Source: Escherichia coli
GTDB lineage: Bacteria; Pseudomonadota; Gammaproteobacteria; Enterobacterales; Enterobacteriaceae
Strand: one strand, 5' to 3'
Assembly: GCF_046105845.1 (NCBI RefSeq)
Contig: NZ_CP151004.1
Length of the DNA: 64,000 nucleotides
Part shown: one piece after another, positions 10,894 to 54,111 of the stretch
How positions within the stretch are numbered: the stretch's first letter is position 1
How the letters are laid out: each line of letters begins with the position of its first letter
Program-made: the position numbers and the translations under genes
Notes under the pieces: model-generated
Told to the model about the DNA's origin: nothing
Seen by the model: only the letters and a program-made list of their open reading frames with translations
Databases searched by the model: none

Positions 10894-11586
10894 GCTGTTC
10901 TTATTATTCCCTGGGGACTACGGGCACAGAGGTTAACTTTCTGTTACCTGGAGACGTCGGGATTTCCTTCCTCCGGTCTGCTTGCGGGTCAGACAGCGTC
11001 CTTTCTATAACTGCGCGTCATGCAAAACACTGCTTCCAGATGCGAAAACGACACGTTACAACGCTGGGTGGCTCGGGATTGCAGGGTGTTCCGGAGACCT
11101 GGCGGCAGTATAGGCTGTTCACAAAATCATTACAATTAACCTACATATAGTTTGTCGGGTTTTATCCTGAACAGTGATCCAGGTCACGATAACAACATTT
11201 ATTTAATTTTTAATCATCTAATTTGACAATCATTCAACAAAGTTGTTACAAACATTACCAGGAAAAGCATATAATGCGTAAAAGTTATGAAGTCGGTATT
11301 TCACCTAAGATTAACTTATGTAACAGTGTGGAAGTATTGACCAATTCATTCGGGACAGTTATTAGTGGTAAACAAGTTTAATAATTCGGATTGCTAAGTA
11401 CTTGATTCGCCATTTATTCGTCATCAATGGATCCTTTACCTGCAAGCGCCCAGAGCTCTGTACCCAGGTTTTCCCCTCTTTCACAGAGCGGCGAGCCAAA
11501 TAACAAACGGGTAAAGCCAGGTTGATGTGCGAAGGCAAATTTAAGTTCCGGCAGTCTTACGCAATAAGGCGCTAAGGAGACCTTAA
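10894..11586. promoter_or_regulatory. Divergent gltA / sdhCDAB promoter region
   Basis: A 690-bp AT-rich gene-free interval between divergent gltA (+) and sdhC (-), which is the known arrangement in E. coli. Individual binding sites were not resolved. Confidence 0.6.
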
Positions 11587-12870
11587 ATGGCTGATACAAA
11601 AGCAAAACTCACCCTCAACGGGGACACAGCTGTTGAACTGGATGTGCTGAAAGGCACGCTGGGTCAAGATGTTATTGATATCCGTACTCTCGGTTCAAAA
11701 GGTGTGTTCACCTTTGACCCAGGCTTCACTTCAACCGCATCCTGCGAATCTAAAATTACTTTTATTGATGGTGATGAAGGTATTTTGCTGCACCGCGGTT
11801 TCCCGATCGATCAGCTGGCGACCGATTCTAACTACCTGGAAGTTTGTTACATCCTGCTGAATGGTGAAAAACCGACTCAGGAACAGTATGACGAATTTAA
11901 AACTACGGTGACCCGTCATACCATGATCCACGAGCAGATTACCCGTCTGTTCCATGCTTTCCGTCGCGACTCGCATCCAATGGCAGTCATGTGTGGTATT
12001 ACCGGCGCGCTGGCGGCGTTCTATCACGACTCGCTGGATGTTAACAATCCTCGTCATCGTGAAATTGCCGCGTTCCGCCTGCTGTCGAAAATGCCGACCA
12101 TGGCCGCGATGTGTTACAAGTATTCCATTGGTCAGCCATTTGTTTACCCGCGCAACGATCTCTCCTATGCCGGTAACTTCCTGAATATGATGTTCTCCAC
12201 GCCGTGCGAACCGTATGAAGTTAATCCGATTCTGGAACGTGCTATGGACCGTATTCTGATCCTGCACGCTGACCATGAACAGAACGCCTCTACCTCCACC
12301 GTGCGTACCGCTGGCTCTTCGGGGGCGAACCCGTTTGCCTGTATCGCAGCAGGTATTGCTTCACTGTGGGGACCTGCGCACGGTGGTGCTAACGAAGCGG
12401 CGCTGAAAATGCTGGAAGAAATCAGCTCCGTTAAACACATTCCGGAATTTGTTCGTCGTGCGAAAGATAAAAATGACTCTTTCCGCCTGATGGGCTTCGG
12501 TCACCGCGTATACAAAAATTACGACCCGCGCGCCACCGTAATGCGTGAAACCTGCCATGAAGTGCTGAAAGAGCTGGGCACCAAAGATGACCTGCTGGAA
12601 GTGGCTATGGAGCTGGAAAACATCGCGCTGAACGACCCGTACTTTATCGAGAAGAAACTCTATCCGAACGTCGATTTCTACTCTGGTATCATCCTGAAAG
12701 CGATGGGTATTCCGTCTTCTATGTTCACCGTGATCTTCGCTATGGCACGCACCGTTGGCTGGATCGCCCACTGGAGCGAAATGCACAGTGACGGTATGAA
12801 GATTGCCCGTCCGCGTCAACTGTATACAGGATATGAAAAACGCGACTTTAAAAGCGACATCAAGCGTTAA
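11587..12870 (+). CDS. gltA: Citrate synthase
   Basis: 427-aa [50 protein letters not shown]..., with catalytic His/Asp region ([14 protein letters not shown]). Confidence 0.97.
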
Positions 12871-12900
12871 TGGTTGATTGCTAAGCCGTTTACTTTCCGG

Positions 12901-12930
12901 ACCCGCCTTTAATAGAGCGGGTTCTTTTTT
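12901..12930 (+). terminator. Rho-independent terminator of gltA
   Basis: ACCCGC-ctttaataga-GCGGGT hairpin followed by TCTTTTTT. Confidence 0.75.
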
Positions 12931-13259
12931 ATATGGCTGAACATAATAAATTGTAAAAATTAAACCAGATGCAAATACCCATTAATAAGGTGAAAAAATG
13001 TGACAAGTCACATACTGAGCAGAATGATAAGTTTATTTTTATACTTTCATGCCGGTAGCATTGTTAACCCAATGAAAATCATGCATATCCATCCCACCCC
13101 ATCCTTCATCTCATTAAACAATAAATTTATGCACTCAATTATTCCATTCTTTATATAACAAGCTTTTTAATATTGTTAAATAAAACCAAATACATTCAAC
13201 TGTCAGTTAATATATTCTTGCCTCGCAACACTCTATCTCATTATTTAAAGGACTCAGCT

Positions 13260-13826
13260 ATGTTTAAAGGACAAAAAACATTGGCCGCACTGGCCGTATC
13301 TCTGCTGTTCACTGCACCTGTTTATGCGGCTGATGAAGGATCCGGTGAAATTCACTTTAAAGGTGAAGTTATTGAAGCACCGTGTGAAATACATCAGGAT
13401 GATATTGATAAAGAAGTTGAACTCGGTCAGGTGACCACCAGCCACATTAATCAGTCGCATCACAGCGATGCCGTTGCTGTCGACCTGCGCTTAGTCAACT
13501 GCGATCTGGAAAACTCCAACAACGGTTCCGGCGGCAAGATTTCTAAAGTTGCAGTCACCTTTGACAGCTCAGCGAAAACCACCGGCGCAGATCCGATTCT
13601 CAACAACACCAGCACGGGTGAAGCGACCGGTGTCGGCGTGCGTTTAATGAATAAAGATCAAAGCAATATCGTTTTAGGCACCGCTACTCCAGATATCGAC
13701 CTGGCACCAACCTCCAGCGAACAAACGTTAAATTTCTTTGCGTGGATGGAACAAATTGATCAGGCTACGCCCGTAACACCAGGCGCAGTTACGGCGAATG
13801 CGACCTACGTACTGGATTATAAATAA
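13260..13826 (+). CDS. ybgD: Fimbrial major subunit-like protein (chaperone-usher pathway)
   Basis: Start chosen at MFKGQKTLAALAVSLLFTAPVYA (signal peptide) with an AGGA RBS upstream; 188 aa; C-terminal YVLDYK donor-strand-like tail. The track ORF begins further upstream at 13173. Confidence 0.88.
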   Translation: MFKGQKTLAALAVSLLFTAPVYAADEGSGEIHFKGEVIEAPCEIHQDDIDKEVELGQVTTSHINQSHHSDAVAVDLRLVNCDLENSNNGSGGKISKVAVTFDSSAKTTGADPILNNTSTGEATGVGVRLMNKDQSNIVLGTATPDIDLAPTSSEQTLNFFAWMEQIDQATPVTPGAVTANATYVLDYK

Positions 13827-13876
13827 GTATCACTTTGGCGGCGTCATCGCCGCCTTTCTTCAAATATTTATCAGGT

Positions 13877-16336
13877 ATGGACACCGTGAATATTTATCGA
13901 CTCTCTTTTATATCCTGCCTGGTCATGGCGATACCTTCCGCATTGGCGGTCGAATTCAACCTGAATGTCCTCGATAAATCGATGCGAGATCGCATTGATA
14001 TTTCATTATTAAAGGAAAAAGGGGGCATTGCTCCCGGTGAATATTTTGTTAGCGTTGCAGTAAATAACAACCAAATCAGTAACGGACAAAAAATTGACTG
14101 GAAAAAGAACGGTGACCAAACCATTCCGTGTATTAATGATTTACTGGTAGATAAATTTGGTTTAAAACCTGAAGTTCGTCAGTCGTTACCACGGTTAAAC
14201 CAGTGCGTCGATTTTAGCTCCCGGCCTGAAATTCTCTTCATTTTTGATCAGGCTAGCCAGCAACTGAATATCACTATTCCACAAGCCTGGCTGGCGTGGC
14301 ACTCAGATAACTGGACTCCCCCCTCAACATGGAAAGAAGGTGTCGCCGGCGTCCTGATGGATTACAACCTGTTTGCAAGCAGCTACCGCCCACAGGATGG
14401 TAGCAACAGCACTAACCTGAACGCCTATGGAACAGCCGGAATTAACGCCGGGGCATGGCGCTTACGCAGTGATTACCAGCTTAATAAGACCGATAGCGAA
14501 GATAACCATGACCAGTCAGGCGGAATATCGCGCACCTATCTTTTTCGTCCATTACCGCAATTAGGCTCTAAGTTAACCCTCGGCGAAACCGATTTCAGTT
14601 CCAATATTTTCGACGGCTTTTCTTATACCGGCGCGGCACTGGCAAGTGACGATCGGATGTTACCGTGGGAGCTACGCGGCTACGCCCCACAAATCAGCGG
14701 CATTGCACAAACCAACGCCACCGTCACCGTGAGTCACTCAGGGCGAGTTATTTACCAGAAAAAAGTCCCACCAGGTCCGTTTATCATTGATGACCTTAAT
14801 CAGTCCGTCCAGGGTACGTTGGATGTCAAAGTGACGGAAGAAGATGGTCGGGTGAACAATTTCCAGGTTTCGGCAGCATCGACGCCCTTCCTGACTCGCC
14901 AGGGACAGGTTCGCTATAAATTGGCCGCGGGTCAGCCACGGCCCTCCATGTCACATCAAACTGAAAATGAAACCTTTTTTAGCAATGAAGTTTCCTGGGG
15001 GATGCTGTCAAATACCTCGCTGTACGGCGGCCTGCTGATTTCGGGTGACGACTACCATTCTGCCGCAATGGGTATCGGGCAAAATATGCTCTGGCTTGGT
15101 GCATTGTCGTTTGATGTCACCTGGGCCAGTAGTCAGTTTGATACTCAGCAGGACGAGCGGGGCTTAAGTTACCGCTTTAATTACAGCAAACAAGTGGATG
15201 CCACTAACAGCACGATTTCGCTCGCCGCTTATCGCTTTTCAGATCGTCATTTTCACAGCTACGCCAACTATCTGGATCACAAATACAACGACAACGATGC
15301 GCAGGACGAAAAACAGACGATCAGCTTATCCGTGGGGCAACCGATTACCCCACTGAACCTCAATCTGTACGCCAACCTGCTGCATCAAACCTGGTGGAAT
15401 GCAGACGCCTCCACGACCGCCAACATCACGGCGGGTTTTAATGTTGATATTGGTAACTGGAGAGATATCTCGATCTCGACGTCATTCAATACAACCCATT
15501 ACGAAGATAAAGATCGCGACAATCAGATTTACCTGTCGATTTCGCTTCCCTTCGGTAACGGGGGGCGGGTCGGTTATGACATGCAAAACAGTAGTCAAAG
15601 CACCACGCACCGCATGTCGTGGAATGATACGTTGGATGAACGTAATAGCTGGGGCATGTCTACCGGACTGCAATCCGACCGTCCGGATAATGGAGCCCAG
15701 GTGAGCGGTAACTATCAGCACCTGAGTTCAGCGGGTGAGTGGGATATTTCTGGTACCTATGCCGCCAATGATTACAGTTCCGTCAGCAGCAGCTGGAGCG
15801 GTTCTTTCACGGCAACTCAATATGGTGCGGCGTTCCATCGTCGCAGCTCCACCAATGAACCACGTCTGATGGTCAGTACCGATGGCGTGGCAGATATTCC
15901 GGTTCAGGGCCATCTCGACTACACCAACCATTTTGGCATTGCGGTGGTGCCGTTGATTTCCAGTTATCAGCCTTCCACCGTGGCGGTGAACATGAATGAC
16001 TTACCCAACGGCGTAACAGTGGCAGAAAACGTTATCAAAGAAACGTGGATTGAAGGCGCGATAGGTTACAAATCACTGGCTTCCCGTTCCGGTAAAGACG
16101 TTAACGTCATCATTCGCAACGCCAGCGGTCAGTTCCCTCCCCTCGGTGCGGATATCCGCCAGGATGATAGCAGCATTAGCGTGGGGATGGTTGGCGAGGA
16201 AGGACACGCCTGGTTAAGTGGAGTCTCTGAAAATCAACAATTTACCGTGGTCTGGGGTGATAGCCAGCGTTGCTCGATCCATCTTCCTGAACATATGGAA
16301 GACACCGCAAATCGCCTGATTTTACCTTGTCATTAA
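13877..16336 (+). CDS. ybgQ: Fimbrial outer-membrane usher protein
   Basis: Large ORF (track: 13835..16336, 833 aa) with an usher-like N-terminal signal peptide MDTVNIYRLSFISCLVMAIPSALA. The exact start is uncertain (TTG 13835, ATG 13877 or GTG 13886). Confidence 0.88.
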   Translation: MDTVNIYRLSFISCLVMAIPSALAVEFNLNVLDKSMRDRIDISLLKEKGGIAPGEYFVSVAVNNNQISNGQKIDWKKNGDQTIPCINDLLVDKFGLKPEVRQSLPRLNQCVDFSSRPEILFIFDQASQQLNITIPQAWLAWHSDNWTPPSTWKEGVAGVLMDYNLFASSYRPQDGSNSTNLNAYGTAGINAGAWRLRSDYQLNKTDSEDNHDQSGGISRTYLFRPLPQLGSKLTLGETDFSSNIFDGFSYTGAALASDDRMLPWELRGYAPQISGIAQTNATVTVSHSGRVIYQKKVPPGPFIIDDLNQSVQGTLDVKVTEEDGRVNNFQVSAASTPFLTRQGQVRYKLAAGQPRPSMSHQTENETFFSNEVSWGMLSNTSLYGGLLISGDDYHSAAMGIGQNMLWLGALSFDVTWASSQFDTQQDERGLSYRFNYSKQVDATNSTISLAAYRFSDRHFHSYANYLDHKYNDNDAQDEKQTISLSVGQPITPLNLNLYANLLHQTWWNADASTTANITAGFNVDIGNWRDISISTSFNTTHYEDKDRDNQIYLSISLPFGNGGRVGYDMQNSSQSTTHRMSWNDTLDERNSWGMSTGLQSDRPDNGAQVSGNYQHLSSAGEWDISGTYAANDYSSVSSSWSGSFTATQYGAAFHRRSSTNEPRLMVSTDGVADIPVQGHLDYTNHFGIAVVPLISSYQPSTVAVNMNDLPNGVTVAENVIKETWIEGAIGYKSLASRSGKDVNVIIRNASGQFPPLGADIRQDDSSISVGMVGEEGHAWLSGVSENQQFTVVWGDSQRCSIHLPEHMEDTANRLILPCH

Positions 16337-16351
16337 TTAAGGAAATGAAAA

Positions 16352-17083
16352 ATGACATTTATGAAAGGACTTCCCCTTTTGTTGTTGATTGCCAGTCTCT
16401 GCAGCTACGCTGCGCTACAACCCGATCGCACTCGCATTGTGTTTAACGCTAATGATAAAGCCACCAGCCTGCGAGTGGATAATCGTAGCGATAAACTCCC
16501 CTACCTCGCTTATTCCTGGCTCGAAAATGAAAAAGGGGAGAAAAGCGATGATCTTCTGGTTGCCCTGCCACCGATACAACGTCTGGAACCGAAAGCAACA
16601 ACGCAGGTACGGATAGTAAAGCAAGTCTCGACCACAAAATTACCGGGCGATCGCGAAACGCTATTTTTCTACAATATGCGTGAAATTCCTCCCGCCCCGG
16701 AAAAAAATAGCGACCATGCCGTTCTGCAAGTCGCCATTCAGAGTCGTATCAAGGTATTCTGGCGACCGGCTGCATTACGCAAGAAAGCAGGAGAAAAGGT
16801 CGAACTGCAGTTACAGGTCAGCCAGCAGGGCAACCAACTGACACTGAAAAATCCTACCGCGTATTATCTGACCATTGCCTATCTGGGGAGAAATGAAAAA
16901 GGCGTTCTCCCGGGCTTCAAAACCGTGATGGTTGCGCCTTTTAGTACAGTAATTACAAACACCGGAAGTTATAGCGGCAGTCAGTTTTATCTCGGTTATA
17001 TGGATGATTACGGCGCGTTACGCATGACGACGCTCAATTGCAACGGACATTGCCGTTTACAAGCAGTGGAGGCGAAGAAATGA
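16352..17083 (+). CDS. ybgP: Periplasmic fimbrial chaperone (PapD-like)
   Basis: 243-aa [63 protein letters not shown]...; its stop overlaps the ybgO start. Confidence 0.9.
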
Positions 17084-18141
17084 GTACTGGCAAAGGATTG
17101 TTGCTCGTCATCTGTCTGTTATTTCTGCCATTGAAGTCTGCGCTAGCGCTGAACTGCTATTTTGGTACTTCCGGTGGAACGGTAGAAAAATCGGAAGCGA
17201 TTCAACCCTTTGCTGTGCCAGGTAATGCCAAACCCGGCGATAAGATTTGGGAATCTGACGATATTAAAATTCCCGTCTATTGTGACAACAATACCAACGG
17301 CAACTTTGAAAGTGAGCATGTCTACGCCTGGGTAAACCCCTACCCGGGGGTGCAGGATCGCTATTATCAACTCGGCGTAACTTACAATGGCGTTGATTAT
17401 GACGCCAACCAGGGAAAAAGCCGCATCGACACTAACCAGTGTATCGACAGTAAGAACATTGACATTTATACCCCTGAGCAGATTATCGCGATGGGATGGC
17501 AGAACAAAATTTGCTCGGGCGATCCCGCTAATATTCATATGTCGCGTACCTTTCTCGCTCGCATGCGGTTATACGTCAAAATACGAGAAATGCCTCCGCA
17601 TGATTATCAAAGTACGCTTAGCGACTATATCGTCGTGCAATTTGACGGTGCCGGTAGCGTTAACGAAGACCCTACCGCCCAAAACCTGAAATATCATATT
17701 ACTGGTCTGGAAAACATTCGCGTGCTGGATTGCAGCGTCAATTTTTCTATTTCACCAGAAACACAGGTGATTGATTTTGGTAAATTTAATTTGCTGGATA
17801 TTCGTCGCCACACAATGTCGAAAACATTCAGTATTAAGACGACAAAATCACAAAATGACCAATGCACCGACGGATTTAAAGTCAGTTCCTCCTTTTATAC
17901 CGAAGAAACGTTGGTTGAAGAAGATAAAGCATTGTTGATTGGTAATGGTCTGAAGCTACGTTTGCTGGATGAAAACGCCTCGCCTTATACCTTCAATAAA
18001 TATGCTGAATACGCCGATTTCACCAGCGATATGCTGATCTACGAAAAAACCTATACGGCTGAACTTTCGTCCATTCCAGGTACCCCCATCGAGGCTGGCC
18101 CCTTCGATACAGTGGTGCTTTTTAAGATTAACTATAACTGA
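17080..18141 (+). CDS. ybgO: Fimbrial minor subunit / putative tip adhesin
   Basis: Start set at [23 protein letters not shown] (353 aa) with a GGAGG RBS; the track ORF begins at 17038. Confidence 0.85.
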
Positions 18142-18292
18142 TTTGCCATGGTGTCCTTTGCAGCCGGAAAGGGCATCTCTTTCAGAAAATTGCTGATTTT
18201 CCCCTTTTCCTTGATTGCTGTTATTTTTTCCTGGCCCGGCTTTCTTTATGCTGTATCGATACACCAAAGAGAAAATAATGAGGGAGCGAAGG

Positions 18293-19339
18293 ATGCCAGT
18301 TTTGCAGTGGGGAATGTTATGTGTGCTATCACTTCTCCTTTCTATTGGTTTCCTCGCGGTACATCTCCCGGCGGCACTATTACTTGGGCCGATGATCGCC
18401 GGGATCATCTTTAGTATGCGCGGAATTACTCTGCAACTTCCCCGCTCCGCTTTTCTCGCCGCCCAGGCCATTCTTGGCTGCATGATTGCGCAAAACCTCA
18501 CTGGTTCGATTCTCACCACCCTGGCCGTCAACTGGCCGATCGTGCTTGCAATTTTACTGGTGACGCTGCTTTCCAGCGCCATCGTGGGTTGGTTATTGGT
18601 GCGCTATAGCTCACTGCCTGGAAATACCGGTGCCTGGGGTTCTTCTCCTGGCGGCGCGGCGGCAATGGTCGCTATGGCGCAAGATTACGGCGCAGATATT
18701 CGCCTGGTGGCGTTTATGCAATATCTGCGAGTGCTGTTCGTCGCAGGGGCCGCTGTTCTGGTCACCCGCATGATGCTGGGCGATAACGCTGAAGCGGTTA
18801 ACCAGCAGATCGTCTGGTTCCCGCCAGTGAGCATTAATCTCCTGCTTACGATTTTGCTCGCGGTCGTTGCCGGTACGGCGGGATGCTTGCTACGTCTTCC
18901 TTCCGGCACGATGCTCATCCCGATGCTGGCGGGCGCAGTGCTCCAGTCTGGTCAGCTCATCACGATTGAACTCCCGGAATGGCTGCTGGCGATGGCGTAT
19001 ATGGCAATTGGCTGGAGGATTGGTCTTGGTTTCGATAAGCAAATCTTACTGCGAGCATTGCGCCCACTGCCACAAATCTTGCTGTCGATTTTTGCTCTGC
19101 TGGCTATTTGTGCAGGTATGGCGTGGGGGCTGACCCGGTTTATGCATATTGATTTTATGACCGCCTACCTCGCCACCAGTCCCGGCGGGCTTGATACCGT
19201 GGCGGTCATCGCCGCAGGGAGCAATGCCGATATGGCGCTTATTATGGCGATGCAAACCCTGCGCCTGTTCAGTATTTTGCTGACGGGGCCAGCCATTGCG
19301 CGGTTTATTTCAACCTATGCGCCGAAGCGGTCGGCCTAG
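18293..19339 (+). CDS. abrB: AbrB-family inner membrane protein (putative regulator/transporter)
   Basis: Start set at [26 protein letters not shown] (348 aa) with RBS AGGGAG; polytopic hydrophobic protein. The track ORF begins at 18215. Confidence 0.9.
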
Positions 19340-25135: not shown

Positions 25136-26554
25136 TTATTTCCCCTTCCTCGCCGCCTCATACGCTGCCAACGTTCGTACTCTCGCTTCTTTGTGATCGA
25201 CAATCGGTTGCGGATAATCCAGCGTCACACCTGATTTATCTGCCCACTTCCACGGCTCATGCACCGCTTTCCCTGGTACATCGCGCAACTCTGGTAGCCA
25301 CCGGCGGATAAACTCGCCTTCGCGGTCAAATTTCTCGCCCTGGGTTGTCGGGTTAAAAATACGAAAATACGGCGCTGCATCGGTTCCGGTTGAAGCGGCC
25401 CACTGCCAGCCACCGTTATTGGCTGCCAAATCACCATCAATCAGCTGCGACACGAAATATCGCTCGCCTTCGCGCCAGTCGATCAATAAATCTTTCACCA
25501 AAAAACTGGCTGTAATCATCCGTAGCCGGTTATGCATCCAGCCAGTGCTGTTAAGCTGACGCATGGCAGCATCAACAATCGGGTATCCCGTTTTACCTTC
25601 TTGCCAGGCTTTAAAATGGGCGGGATTGCGCTGCCACTGCACACGATCCGTCCAGACAATAAACGGACGATGTTTACACAGCGAAGGATAATACGTCATC
25701 AAATGGCGGTAGAACTCGCGCCAGATCAACTCATTAAGCCAGACACTACCGGCCCCATCTTCCAGCGCCTGCGGCTGTTCCGCCAACAGGCGATGTAGAC
25801 ACTGGCGAGGCGATAACCCGCCCGTTGCCAGGCTGGCGGACAAACGGCTGGTACCTTCAACTGCCGGAAAATCTCGTTGTTGCTCATACTCTCCGGCACC
25901 GTTCTGGCAAAACTGGCGTAATTGCGCAATCGCCGCTTTTTCTTCCACCGGGAAATGCGCAGTATCGAAAGGCTGACGAGGATAACTCAGCGTAATGGAT
26001 GGCGCGGGAGCTATCGATCCGCTACTACGTACTTTTGGCGCAGCGACGCACTCCGGCATCCCTTCCCGCAACCGTTTCAGCCAGGCGTTTTTAAATGGCG
26101 TAAAGACTTTGTACATCTCATGATTGCCAGTCATCACCGTCCCCGGCGGCAGGATCACGCTGTCGTCAAATCCTTCACACACCACGTTACGCAGCGTTCT
26201 CTCAACCTGCACATCCCGCGCCCGCTCATTCACCTCATACTGATAGTTATAAAAAAGATGAGTAACGCTGTTTTCCGCGCACACCTGTTTAACTATTTCG
26301 ACGCTGGCGGCAAAGTCATCCACTTCACGGAACAATAAAGGAATGCCTTTTTCCGCCAGCGCGATTTGTAGCCCATTCAGTTGAGCATTGATAAGTTCAG
26401 CCTGACGCGGCGACACATTATGCGCCGCCCACTGGCGTGGGGTAGCGATATACAACGCCAGCACGCGCGCAGACGAATTGCGGCAGGCGGCAGCCAGCGC
26501 GAGATTATCGTGCTGACGTAAATCCTGGCGAAACCAGACCAGATGGGTAGTCAT
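25136..26554 (-). CDS. phr: Deoxyribodipyrimidine photolyase
   Basis: 472-aa ORF MTTHLVWFRQDLRQHDNLALAAACRNSSARVLALYIATPRQWAAH...; FAD-binding C-terminal domain. Confidence 0.96.
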   Translation of the reverse strand: MTTHLVWFRQDLRQHDNLALAAACRNSSARVLALYIATPRQWAAHNVSPRQAELINAQLNGLQIALAEKGIPLLFREVDDFAASVEIVKQVCAENSVTHLFYNYQYEVNERARDVQVERTLRNVVCEGFDDSVILPPGTVMTGNHEMYKVFTPFKNAWLKRLREGMPECVAAPKVRSSGSIAPAPSITLSYPRQPFDTAHFPVEEKAAIAQLRQFCQNGAGEYEQQRDFPAVEGTSRLSASLATGGLSPRQCLHRLLAEQPQALEDGAGSVWLNELIWREFYRHLMTYYPSLCKHRPFIVWTDRVQWQRNPAHFKAWQEGKTGYPIVDAAMRQLNSTGWMHNRLRMITASFLVKDLLIDWREGERYFVSQLIDGDLAANNGGWQWAASTGTDAAPYFRIFNPTTQGEKFDREGEFIRRWLPELRDVPGKAVHEPWKWADKSGVTLDYPQPIVDHKEARVRTLAAYEAARKGK

Positions 26555-27060
26555 AAAACTCCTGCATGGCGCAAGTTAATCACACGCGGCCAAAGTTCGA
26601 AATAACGCTGCCCTGAAAGCCAGGCGTCAGGATAAAGCGCCATATAGTGTTTGATACGCATCAGCGGCGCAAGAAGCGGTTGCTCGCCACGGCGATAACT
26701 GTCGATAAGCGCCGCCAGCTGCTGGCGTTCTGTGGAATCAATATGCGGGCGAAAATACCCCTGAACGTGCATCAAAACGTTGGTGTGATCGCGCGGGTTG
26801 GCGGGATGAGAAAGCAAAACAATTACGCGTTGGCGGTACTGGCTGTAAAAATCATCCAGATTTTGCCACTGATGAATATCAGCCACAAACGGGCCAAGTT
26901 TGCGGTATTCCGGCTGAGAATGAGCCAGAAAGACGAGTTTATAGCGGCTGTGATAATCGAGAAGCGCCCCGCGCGTTAAGCCTCGCTCTTTAAGACGGTA
27001 TAACTCCTGCAAAGCAAAAATGCGAATAAGGGTGCTGTCATCAAATCGTTGTAGATTCAT
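26551..27060 (-). CDS. ybgA: DUF1722-family protein, cotranscribed upstream of phr
   Basis: Start set at MNLQRFDDSTLIRIFALQELYRL (169 aa) with an AGGAG RBS; the track ORF begins at 27129. Its stop overlaps the phr start. Confidence 0.88.
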   Translation of the reverse strand: MNLQRFDDSTLIRIFALQELYRLKERGLTRGALLDYHSRYKLVFLAHSQPEYRKLGPFVADIHQWQNLDDFYSQYRQRVIVLLSHPANPRDHTNVLMHVQGYFRPHIDSTERQQLAALIDSYRRGEQPLLAPLMRIKHYMALYPDAWLSGQRYFELWPRVINLRHAGVL

Positions 27061-27161
27061 TACTGCTCCTGAACGGTTTACAGGAGTAAGTGTAGACGGC
27101 GAAAAGAAAAAAACCGCCAGCGTTTCCACTAGCGGTTTTCAATGTATTCAAAACTCAGCAA

Positions 27162-27368
27162 TCAGTAAAAATCACCAGTTGCCTTTTCGGCCTGATCCAT
27201 CCACACCGGTTTATCGCTGGTTTTCGACCAGACGCGGTGCAGGTAGCTGTAAAAGCGGGCGCGGTCTTTCCAGAAAAGCATGAAAGGCAGCGCCAGAACG
27301 CCCGCTGCAACCGCATAAGTACGGCGTAAAAAGATAAGCCATGCAGGATATTCTCTGTAGAGTTCCAT
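27162..27368 (-). CDS. ybfA: Small inner-membrane protein YbfA (DUF2517)
   Basis: 68-aa [71 protein letters not shown]. Confidence 0.85.
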
Positions 27369-27574
27369 ACTTTTCTCCCCCTTTTGTATCTACCCGGTGA
27401 ATGGCACCGGAAAAATGAATTTGTTTATCTGATGAAAATAGTACCGCCTTTTGTGTAATTTTACTACTCATCCGACCACTTATTTTTGCTTATTGATGGT
27501 TTATTTACATTCACCGTGTAATTAAGTTACATGAAAGTTAAATTAATACTAATCATTAGTTAAATCATGGCTTT

Positions 27575-27605
27575 TGCCATTTTTATACTTTTTTTACACC
27601 CCGCC
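27575..27605 (+). promoter_or_regulatory. KdpE response-regulator binding site in the kdpFABC promoter
   Basis: CATTTTTATACTTTTTTTACACCCCGCCCG about 80 bp upstream of kdpF; matches my recollection of the characterised KdpE operator. Confidence 0.65.
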
Positions 27606-53406: not shown

Positions 53407-53483
53407 TGGCTACGTAGCTCAGTTGGTTAGAGCACATCACTCATAATGATGGGGTCACAGGTTCGAATCCCGTCGTAGCCACC
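53407..53483 (+). tRNA. metT: tRNA-Met (CAU, elongator)
   Basis: GGCTACGTAGCTCAGTTGGTTAGAGCACATCACTCATAATGATGGGGTCACAGGTTCGAATCCCGTCGTAGCCACCA; anticodon loop CTCATAA. Confidence 0.95.
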
Positions 53484-53492
53484 ATCTTTTTT

Positions 53493-53578
53493 GCGGGAGT
53501 GGCGAAATTGGTAGACGCACCAGATTTAGGTTCTGGCGCCGCAAGGTGTGCGAGTTCAAGTCTCGCCTCCCGCACCAT
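53493..53578 (+). tRNA. leuW: tRNA-Leu (UAG)
   Basis: GCGGGAGTGGCGAAATTGGTAGACGCACCAGATTTAGGTTCTGG...CTCGCCTCCCGCACCA; long variable arm; anticodon TAG. Confidence 0.93.
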
Positions 53579-53600
53579 TCACCAGAAAGCGTTGTACGGA

Positions 53601-53675
53601 TGGGGTATCGCCAAGCGGTAAGGCACCGGTTTTTGATACCGGCATTCCCTGGTTCGAATCCAGGTACCCCAGCCA
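53601..53675 (+). tRNA. glnU: tRNA-Gln (UUG)
   Basis: TGGGGTATCGCCAAGCGGTAAGGCACCGGTTTTTGATACCGGCATTCCCTGGTTCGAATCCAGGTACCCCAGCCA. Confidence 0.95.
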
Positions 53676-53709
53676 TCTTCTTCGAGTAAGCGGTTCACCG
53701 CCCGGTTAT

Positions 53710-53784
53710 TGGGGTATCGCCAAGCGGTAAGGCACCGGTTTTTGATACCGGCATTCCCTGGTTCGAATCCAGGTACCCCAGCCA
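53710..53784 (+). tRNA. glnW: tRNA-Gln (UUG), second identical copy
   Basis: Identical in sequence to glnU. Confidence 0.95.
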
Positions 53785-53799
53785 TCGAAGAAACAATCT

Positions 53800-53876
53800 G
53801 GCTACGTAGCTCAGTTGGTTAGAGCACATCACTCATAATGATGGGGTCACAGGTTCGAATCCCGTCGTAGCCACCA
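53800..53876 (+). tRNA. metU: tRNA-Met (CAU, elongator), second identical copy
   Basis: Identical in sequence to metT. Confidence 0.95.
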
Positions 53877-53924
53877 AATTCTGAATGTGTCGAATAAGTT
53901 CGGCAAATTCACAAACCAATTTGT

Positions 53925-53999
53925 TGGGGTATCGCCAAGCGGTAAGGCACCGGATTCTGATTCCGGCATTCCGAGGTTCGAATCCTCGTACCCCAGCCA
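53925..53999 (+). tRNA. glnV: tRNA-Gln (CUG)
   Basis: TGGGGTATCGCCAAGCGGTAAGGCACCGGATTCTGATTCCGGCATTCCGAGGTTCGAATCCTCGTACCCCAGCCA. Confidence 0.95.
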
Positions 54000-54036
54000 A
54001 TTTATTCAAGACGCTTACCTTGTAAGTGCACCCAGT

Positions 54037-54111
54037 TGGGGTATCGCCAAGCGGTAAGGCACCGGATTCTGATTCCGGCATTCCGAGGTTCGAATCCTCG
54101 TACCCCAGCCA
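54037..54111 (+). tRNA. glnX: tRNA-Gln (CUG), second identical copy
   Basis: Identical in sequence to glnV. Confidence 0.95.

Follow-up and report, generated by a model that had tools for sequence, protein, structure and literature searches.

A predicted Pap-like chaperone-usher operon of Escherichia coli, ybgDQPO, with intact genes, a K-12-like adhesin and a common non-K-12 shaft subunit

Introduction

Does the ybg locus of an Escherichia coli chromosome (contig NZ_CP151004.1, assembly GCF_046105845.1) encode a complete chaperone-usher fimbria, and does its adhesin depart from that of K-12? Ybg is a core-associated fimbrial type of E. coli, defined by usher phylogeny and locus position (Wurpel 2013, PMC3559732), and ybg has been listed as a core CU locus of the pi family (PMC5216030). 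Ybg and Yfc fimbriae raise the adherence of K-12 to bladder cells (Korea et al. 2010, as cited in PMC6033998). We analysed the locus within a stretch of 64,000 nucleotides (the window), in which a sequence-only reading had pointed to an apparently intact operon. Our analysis indicates that the four genes of chromosomal ybgDQPO very probably make up a minimal chaperone-usher fimbrial system of Pap-like (pi-clade) type, and that it is intact here.

Results

The ybg locus and the integrity of its genes

Four open reading frames on the plus strand, at positions 13260–18141 of the window, lie between gltA and abrB and correspond to ybgD, ybgQ, ybgP, and ybgO:

11587–12870: gltA, 5' neighbour of the operon
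12871–13259, + strand: region upstream of ybgD (promoter/regulatory), 389 nt, after the gltA terminator hairpin
13260–13826, + strand: ybgD, major (shaft) pilin subunit, 188 amino acids, signal peptide residues 1–23
13837–13854, + strand: GC hairpin (GGCGGCG-TCAT-CGCCGCC), then a T-rich tract (TTTCTT), between ybgD and ybgQ
13877–16336, + strand: ybgQ, outer-membrane usher, 819 amino acids, with PapC_N, Usher, and PapC_C domains
16352–17083, + strand: ybgP, periplasmic PapD-like chaperone, 243 amino acids, with PapD_N and PapD_C domains
17080–18141, + strand: ybgO, two-domain tip adhesin, 353 amino acids, signal peptide residues 1–23
18293–19339: abrB (ybgN), 3' neighbour of the operon

The order sdhCDAB, gltA, ybgDQPO, abrB, nei, pxpA is the same in K-12 and T-HYM1. 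This synteny, together with sequence identity to the genes of K-12, assigns the locus to ybgDQPO. Both features that mark the Ybg fimbrial type are present, namely the gltA–abrB location in the E. coli backbone and an usher that by sequence identity groups with YbgQ (94.1% amino acid identity to K-12 YbgQ and 97.8% to that of T-HYM1).

All gene lengths are divisible by 3 and internal stops are absent. When each gene was aligned globally with its counterparts in K-12 and T-HYM1, no frameshift or premature stop emerged, which rules out a frameshift or pseudogene reading of the ybg genes and upholds the earlier view of four intact genes with uninterrupted frames. The products YbgD, YbgQ, YbgP, and YbgO have 188, 819, 243, and 353 amino acids, as compared with 188, 818, 242, and 353 in RefSeq K-12; ybgQ and ybgP each differ by an in-frame indel of a single codon. 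The T-HYM1 genes are identical in length to those of the window and align without gaps.

The junctions are tight, as had been noted from the sequence: a 50-nt gap that contains the GC hairpin separates ybgD from ybgQ, a 15-nt gap with an AAGGAA ribosome-binding site separates ybgQ from ybgP, and ybgP and ybgO overlap by 4 nt (ATGA), with a GGAGG site. An AAAGGA ribosome-binding site lies 7 nt 5' of the ybgD ATG. The start of ybgQ is uncertain by three codons (ATG at 13877, as in RefSeq, or GTG at 13886). The mechanical open reading frame call for this gene begins at TTG 13835.

Sec signal peptides, also part of the earlier reading, are present on all four components, as judged by eye from their N-termini (charged n-region, hydrophobic core, and small residues at -3 and -1). 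Plausible cleavage sites are ...APVYA↓ADEG in YbgD, ...PSALA↓VEFN in YbgQ, ...CSYA↓ALQP in YbgP, and ...KSALA↓LNCY in YbgO; that of YbgP agrees with the start of mature PapD, and that of YbgO with the first residue of the construct in the PDB.

Pilin, usher, and chaperone

YbgD is a single pilin domain of 165 residues when mature, and residues 31–188 cover the full profile of Pfam Fimbrial (PF00419, E = 4e-30). It has the N-terminal extension of a pilin (mature N-terminus ADEGSGEIHFKGEVIEAPC) and a penultimate tyrosine (C-terminus ...LDYK). Its nearest solved relatives are FimA (1e-16) and PapA (3e-14).

YbgQ has the N-terminal domain, plugged barrel, and C-terminal domains of an usher (PapC_N, residues 26–165; Usher, 183–733, E = 6.6e-187, profile 2–548 of 549; PapC_C, 746–803). 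Among solved structures its nearest match is PapC (residues 25–818 align to PapC 1–805, E = 9.6e-154), with FimD at 4e-79.

YbgP has the two domains of a periplasmic chaperone (PapD_N, 3.4e-34; PapD_C, 5.4e-14), and here too the nearest solved relative is PapD (2.7e-49), with FimC at about 3e-28. The Pfam E-values for the pilin, usher, and chaperone are all far beyond chance. The functional segments of YbgP align with those of PapD (DRTRIVF with DRTRAVF, and RIKVFWRP with KIKLFYRP), which places the arginine at mature position 8 and the lysine of RIK, equivalent to Lys112, at mature position 114. The C-terminal cysteine pair (CNGHC) is also kept. The best match to ybgP in complete genomes is 97.4% identical in nucleotides, and 50 blocks of an assembly index list the exact YbgP protein.

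The tip adhesin

YbgO has the two domains of a tip adhesin, a receptor-binding domain (residues ~24–217) and a pilin domain (~218–353). Residues 24–222 match PDB entries 9rx0 and 9rww, "fimbrial protein" domains solved alone (E = 5e-133); a literature search found no paper describing these two structures. The pilin domain matches Fimbrial weakly (23.2 bits, below the cutoff of 25.6). An AlphaFold model of YbgO (pLDDT 88.5, pTM 0.78) has two β-domains, and its top Foldseek matches are the tip adhesins LpfD, FimH, CupB6, PapG, CsuE, and CfaE. The PDB library used by Foldseek (entries to 2026-04-08) did not return 9rx0 or 9rww, so these fold matches are distant adhesins only, and they superpose poorly over the whole chain (TM ~0.3) because domain orientation differs. 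The six cysteines of YbgO are invariant among 37 homologues.

Pfam, the solved-structure searches, and the AlphaFold model thus agree on the roles of pilin, usher, chaperone, and tip adhesin first proposed from the sequence. Chaperone-usher operons usually begin with the major subunit, followed by a hairpin, and end with the adhesin. A different division of labor, in which YbgD is the adhesin and YbgO serves as a minor subunit of the structure, or in which YbgP and YbgQ mainly serve the subunits of other operons, has next to no chance of being correct. In its favor, some sources, older K-12 annotations among them, name YbgD a "fimbrial-like adhesin", work on Shigella raises the possibility that a broken fimD is compensated by YbgQ and YbgP, and the Pfam score of the YbgO pilin domain falls short of the cutoff. 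Against it, YbgD is a lone pilin domain whose nearest relatives, FimA and PapA, are rod subunits, YbgO carries ~195 additional N-terminal residues that form a domain solved alone, the full YbgO model best matches known tip adhesins, and the gene order is the usual one.

With YbgD as shaft and YbgO as tip, steps of assembly can be proposed from the family to accompany the sequence features established here. All four proteins would be exported through Sec by means of cleavable signal peptides. By donor-strand complementation YbgP would cap the pilins, whose Ig fold is incomplete, with Arg8 and the lysine of RIK anchoring the pilin C-termini. YbgQ would recruit the YbgP–YbgO complex first, which would put the two-domain YbgO at the tip, and YbgD subunits would then be polymerized below YbgO, through the pore of the usher, by exchange of donor strands.

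Intercistronic hairpin and upstream region

The hairpin between ybgD and ybgQ has a folding energy of -15.4 kcal/mol (z = -4.4 versus shuffles). Its GGCGGC/GCCGCC stem is unchanged in K-12-type and O157-like haplotypes, despite ybgD being only 71–74% identical. The hairpin is probably an attenuator or mRNA stabilizer that sets the ratio of subunit to usher, and it would yield more shaft subunit relative to assembly machinery. When the full window was scanned with Rfam, the only hits were seven tRNAs, distant at 53.4–54.1 kb, and no structured RNA was found at ybg.

The gltA terminator hairpin lies at about 12899–12930. The region upstream of ybgD has the same length of 389 nt in K-12 and T-HYM1, a GC content of 0.36–0.38 versus ~0.50 in the flanks, and an identity of ~66% to K-12 and 99% to T-HYM1 (elsewhere in the analysis given as identical to T-HYM1). 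A promoter scan was uninformative, with 5 σ70-like sites as compared with 9.2 expected; the sole weak match upstream of ybgD (13000–13028) is no better than chance. A Pap-like Dam/Lrp phase switch (PapI/PapB) was rejected: no GATC site occurs between 12766 and 13338, and no regulator reading frame lies between gltA and ybgD. A fimS-like invertible element was likewise rejected, as credible flanking inverted repeats and a recombinase gene are absent. An AT-rich upstream region with no dedicated regulator, recombinase, or Dam/GATC switch fits the cryptic state reported in laboratory culture. The operon may be silenced by H-NS. Induction of ybgD upon BolA overexpression (PMC4337573) and ybg transcription in STEC (PMC6033998) have been reported.

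Divergence from K-12

The sequence-only reading had left a difference in adhesin specificity from K-12 to be judged by alignment. Aligned with K-12, YbgO is 98.3% identical, with six substitutions (A3T, M22L, A34T, S110N, L111Q, and V320I), three of them in the mature receptor-binding (lectin) domain, and a dN/dS of 0.05. By this comparison the adhesin is conserved in sequence, nearly identical to that of K-12. YbgQ is 94.1% identical (dN/dS 0.09) and YbgP 89.7%. YbgD is only 79.3% identical in amino acids and 74.1% in nucleotides (dS 1.56, dN/dS 0.10), while it is 100% identical to that of T-HYM1. Judged from these alignments, the difference from K-12 lies mainly in the shaft subunit, not in the tip adhesin.

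When allele classes of ybgD were defined by at least 95% nucleotide identity in 5,426 complete E. coli genomes, the class of the window was the majority class (2,808 genomes) and that of K-12 a minority class. The predicted shaft subunit is a different antigenic allele from that of K-12, and of the class commonest in the species. In the 28 full-length records listed for this class, the PGAP label "ybgD" is absent.

The values of dN/dS for the four genes relative to K-12 (0.05–0.12, at dS 0.23–1.56) indicate purifying selection on all of them. These values bear on whether the operon is a non-functional relic, its frames open but never expressed and on the way to decay like the numerous disrupted or deleted ybg loci of E. 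coli and Shigella. Decay is seen elsewhere: many strains lack an intact Ybg locus (Wurpel 2013, PMC3559732), ybgO is a pseudogene in S. flexneri 2457T, many truncated YbgO fragments of about 200–266 amino acids are in the protein database, about 1,240 of the 5,426 complete genomes lack ybgD, and some genomes keep only a 3' remnant of ybgO or have another island at the site. In the window itself, the scan found no convincing promoter. Nevertheless, purifying selection on the four genes is strong, gene lengths are kept across three haplotype classes that are 71–80% identical in nucleotides, the functional residues and all invariant cysteines are retained, the intercistronic hairpin is conserved, and reports of transcription, both in STEC and after induction by BolA, speak against a locus that is never expressed. 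We consider a relic highly improbable, and an intact Pap-like system the far better account.

Haplotypes of the ybg locus

The break in identity between the window and K-12 starts within the final ~130 nt of the gltA gene. The whole operon is 97.4% identical to that of T-HYM1, and no other of the 5,426 complete genomes exceeds this value for the haplotype of the window. Differences from T-HYM1 are unevenly spread: ybgP is 92.6% identical in nucleotides, and ybgQ and ybgO contain patches at 86–94%. Such a patchwork is recombination mosaicism. None of the 5,426 complete genomes has the exact ybg haplotype of the window, which may be a recombinant one. The independent draft assemblies GCA_044249515.1, GCA_018015415.1, and Logan ERR13115083 are 100% identical to the window over 9–14 kb. 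An origin outside E. coli was suspected because the best identity in complete genomes is only 97–98%; it is not supported, since gltA is 98.5–99.1% identical to that of E. coli, with an identical protein, and the NCBI and Logan assemblies match at 100%.

Discussion

The operon corresponds to Ybg of E. coli K-12 MG1655 in its gltA–abrB locus, its four genes and their order, its junction types, and product lengths within one residue. P (Pap) pili supply the closest solved relatives of its usher and chaperone, and with them it shares the Arg8 and Lys112-type residues, the C-terminal disulfide motif of the chaperone, and a two-domain adhesin at the tip. Unlike Pap, Ybg has only two pilins, and it lacks the PapE/F/K adaptors, the PapH terminator, the PapI/PapB regulators, and the GATC/Lrp phase switch. 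The receptor domain of YbgO has no sequence-level relation to PapG, its solved-structure matches being YbgO-like domains only. Type 1 fimbriae (FimA/C/D/H) share the chaperone-usher assembly logic, FimA is the best solved match of YbgD, and FimH is among the fold matches of YbgO; however, the FimC and FimD machinery is more remote than that of Pap, and Ybg lacks the invertible fimS switch, the recombinases, and the FimF/G adaptors. Placement in the pi clade of the Nuccio and Baumler scheme fits both the best solved-structure matches and the literature.

The intact ybg operon is an already known, catalogued, ordinary, and usually silent E. coli locus, whose adhesin domain is already in the PDB. 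For annotation, the ybg locus here can be recorded as intact and its adhesin treated as K-12-like, while the shaft subunit should be recognized as belonging to the common non-K-12 allele class. Presence/absence screens with K-12 ybgD nucleotide sequence could miss this class because of the 74% identity and the missing PGAP label in the records listed.

At least three ybg haplotype classes coexist, with YbgD 71–79% identical in amino acids and dS above 1. Alongside this divergence, the adhesin stays conserved, purifying selection acts on every gene, the hairpin does not vary, and a sharp recombination boundary lies in the 3' end of gltA. We put forward, as somewhat speculative, the reading that diversifying or balancing selection may have maintained this "cryptic" locus in E. 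coli over the long term. If it is correct, the fibers would be expressed in natural hosts and seen by immunity or phages. The allele structure of ybg offers a modest lead for work on selection in "cryptic" fimbriae.

Organization and intactness of the ybgDQPO operon

The ybgDQPO operon consists of four consecutive plus-strand reading frames, bounded in the ORF list by gltA and abrB.

11587-12870, gltA, citrate synthase, flank of the operon
13260-13826, plus strand, ybgD, 188 amino acids
13877-16336, plus strand, ybgQ, 819 amino acids
16352-17083, plus strand, ybgP, 243 amino acids
17080-18141, plus strand, ybgO, 353 amino acids
18293-19339, abrB, flank of the operon

The ybgQ frame opens at TTG 13835, with the ATG of RefSeq orthologues corresponding to 13877 and GTG 13886 being an alternative start. 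None of the four genes contains an internal stop, and the product lengths are within one residue of those of K-12 (188, 818, 242, and 353 amino acids in RefSeq for YbgD, YbgQ, YbgP, and YbgO) and are the same as those of strain T-HYM1. Global alignment of the four genes revealed no frameshifts relative to either reference; the sole gaps against K-12 are in-frame indels of one codon in each of ybgQ and ybgP, and there are none against T-HYM1. The sequence-only reading had described uninterrupted frames and proposed a search for frameshifts and premature stops by alignment, and the outcome of that search is therefore negative.

The same reading had noted tight junctions and signal peptides, and its account of the junctions holds. 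A 50-nt spacer separates ybgD from ybgQ, a 15-nt spacer carrying an AAGGAA ribosome-binding site separates ybgQ from ybgP, and ybgP and ybgO overlap at ATGA, with a GGAGG site. By inspection, the N-termini of all four proteins resemble Sec signal peptides, and the predicted mature end of YbgP lines up with that of mature PapD, and that of YbgO with the first residue of the YbgO domain that was crystallised. A 208-amino acid antisense ORF (17956-18582, minus strand) lies over the 3' end of ybgO and the 5' end of abrB; nothing corresponding to it is annotated in the genomes compared, and it is probably spurious.

Pilin, usher, and chaperone

Pfam domains, matches to solved structures, and a model of YbgO bear out the four roles assigned earlier. 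YbgD has a Pfam Fimbrial domain (E = 4e-30), and its nearest solved relatives are the rod subunits FimA (1e-16) and PapA (3e-14). YbgQ has the Pfam domains PapC_N, Usher (E = 6.6e-187), and PapC_C. In a search of solved structures PapC aligned with it end to end (E = 9.6e-154), whereas the match to FimD was far weaker (4e-79). YbgP has PapD_N and PapD_C domains; its nearest solved relative is PapD (2.7e-49, as compared with about 3e-28 for FimC), and it retains the Arg8 that anchors subunits, the lysine of the RIKxF motif, and a pair of C-terminal cysteines. These Pap-like sequence features of the usher and chaperone are consistent with published work that assigns ybg to the pi family and counts it as a core chaperone-usher locus of E. 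coli (PMC5216030; Wurpel 2013, PMC3559732).

The YbgO adhesin

The only Pfam match in YbgO is a below-threshold match to Fimbrial at residues 218-353. Residues 24-222 (window 17149-17745) match PDB chains 9rx0 and 9rww, both named 'Fimbrial protein' (E = 5e-133), and the receptor-binding domain therefore already has deposited structures; 9rwu and 9rwe are remoter solved relatives. Three residues distinguish the deposited receptor-domain sequence from that of the window (S30, S34, and L52 versus T30, T34, and P52 in the window). These entries are absent from a fold library dated to 2026-04-08, our literature search found no paper describing them, and they seem to have been deposited recently. 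An AlphaFold model of YbgO, built with 37 homologues, among them sequences from Escherichia, Enterobacter, Citrobacter, Salmonella, and Kluyvera, is confident (pLDDT 88.5, pTM 0.78) and shows two domains rich in beta structure. The structures closest to it in Foldseek are without exception tip adhesins with two domains (LpfD, FimH, CupB6, PapG, CsuE, and CfaE), followed by single pilins aligned to the C-terminal domain.

Comparison with K-12

The alignment with K-12 that had been proposed earlier separates the adhesin, which is nearly identical, from the shaft subunit.

Identity to K-12 (protein / nucleotide)
gltA: 100 / 98.5%
YbgD: 79.3 / 74.1%
YbgQ: 94.1 / 92.6%
YbgP: 89.7 / 88.0%
YbgO: 98.3 / 94.9%
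abrB: 99.4 / 96.8%

YbgO has six substitutions (A3T, M22L, A34T, S110N, L111Q, and V320I), three of which (A34T, S110N, and L111Q) are within the mature receptor-binding domain; positions 110 and 111 belong to a family-variable segment. With 98.3% identity and only three receptor-domain changes, the adhesin is thus essentially K-12-like. The identity values mark YbgD as a different allele from that of K-12. Values of dN/dS against K-12 are 0.10 for ybgD (dS 1.56), 0.09 for ybgQ, 0.12 for ybgP, and 0.05 for ybgO; all four genes have therefore been under purifying selection. In a sliding-window comparison, identity to K-12 falls sharply from about 96-100% to 64-68%, beginning within the last ~130 nt of gltA, and is regained only inside ybgQ, ybgP having further patches. 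On this profile, the ybg locus is a recombination mosaic.

Distribution and haplotypes among E. coli genomes

At least 80% of a 5.4-kb query is present in 4,158 of 5,426 complete E. coli genomes, and ybgD in 4,185. Identity of ybgD to the window allele is at least 95% in 2,808 genomes, making this the majority allele class, and 60-80% in 1,335, a group that includes both the K-12 type (74%) and a type resembling O157 (71%). In the PGAP annotation of 28 full-length records listed, the gene name 'ybgD' is reserved for the seven K-12-type alleles. At least three deeply diverged haplotype classes of the operon occur (window-type, K-12-type, and O157-like); the O157-like haplotype has 71-80% nucleotide identity over the four genes, yet is intact with unchanged gene lengths. 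Some genomes keep a ybgO 3' remnant alone, as a deletion scar, and in others ybg is replaced by a TRAP-transporter/UxaA island. Judged from these sequences, the gltA-abrB interval as a whole, window 12744-14300 included, is polymorphic in E. coli and a hotspot of recombination.

The exact operon haplotype of the window is not among the 5,426 complete genomes (best match 97.4% overall, and also 97.4% for ybgP alone), none of which exceeds about 97-98% identity over the operon or a 24-kb flank. Three draft assemblies (GCA_044249515.1, GCA_018015415.1, and Logan ERR13115083) match the window at 100% identity over 9-14 kb. The operon sequence therefore belongs to a real circulating lineage rather than being an artefact, and that lineage is unrepresented among these complete genomes.

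Elsewhere in the window, the matching span in the best-matching complete genomes is 29.5 kb as compared with 24 kb of query, and these genomes have a 4.2-kb RHS core gene and a small ORF between ybgA and ybfA; the window thus appears to lack the Rhs element (about 26554-27600, between phrB/ybgA and kdpFA). A 35-amino acid ORF between sdhC and gltA (11274-11381) matches Pfam YbgU (PF23495), is called in the identical assemblies, and is annotated by RefSeq as a hypothetical protein. Seven tRNA genes are clustered at 53408-54108 (plus strand; Rfam tRNA, 57-71 bits).

Regulatory region

The 389 nt upstream of ybgD are AT-rich (GC 0.36-0.38) and contain no GATC site and no convincing invertible-switch repeats, and the ORF list has no regulator gene between gltA and ybgD. 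The operon therefore has neither a Pap-type nor a Fim-type phase switch. A promoter scan was uninformative.

A GC hairpin with a T-rich tail (13837-13854; -15.4 kcal/mol, z = -4.4) lies 3' of ybgD. Attenuator or stabiliser hairpins are usual after major-subunit genes, and this one is a putative attenuator or mRNA stabiliser. The GC stem, of six pairs, does not vary among the three haplotype classes, where the flanking coding sequence is only 71-74% identical, which suggests that an RNA element is under selection. The 151 nt that separate the stop codon of ybgO from the start of abrB (18142-18292) showed no terminator-like site on the plus strand, and transcription may read through from ybg into abrB.

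Proposed assembly and significance

By analogy with the family, all four Ybg proteins would be exported through Sec, and YbgP would stabilise the pilins by donor-strand complementation. YbgQ would initiate assembly with the YbgP-YbgO complex, placing YbgO at the tip, and YbgD would then be polymerised by donor-strand exchange. The K-12 chaperone-usher operons are reportedly cryptic in culture, as the title of the 2010 paper by Korea and colleagues also states. Higher ybg gene expression has been described in HUS-associated STEC. BolA overexpression induces ybgD (PMC4337573), and K-12 Ybg fimbriae raise adherence to bladder cells, according to a passage in PMC6033998 citing Korea et al. 2010.

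Both what the sequence-only reading observed and how it interpreted the locus are upheld. The operon is of a textbook type and already catalogued. What is added here is that it is intact, with a K-12-like adhesin, a shaft subunit of the common non-K-12 allele class, and the structure of a recombination mosaic.
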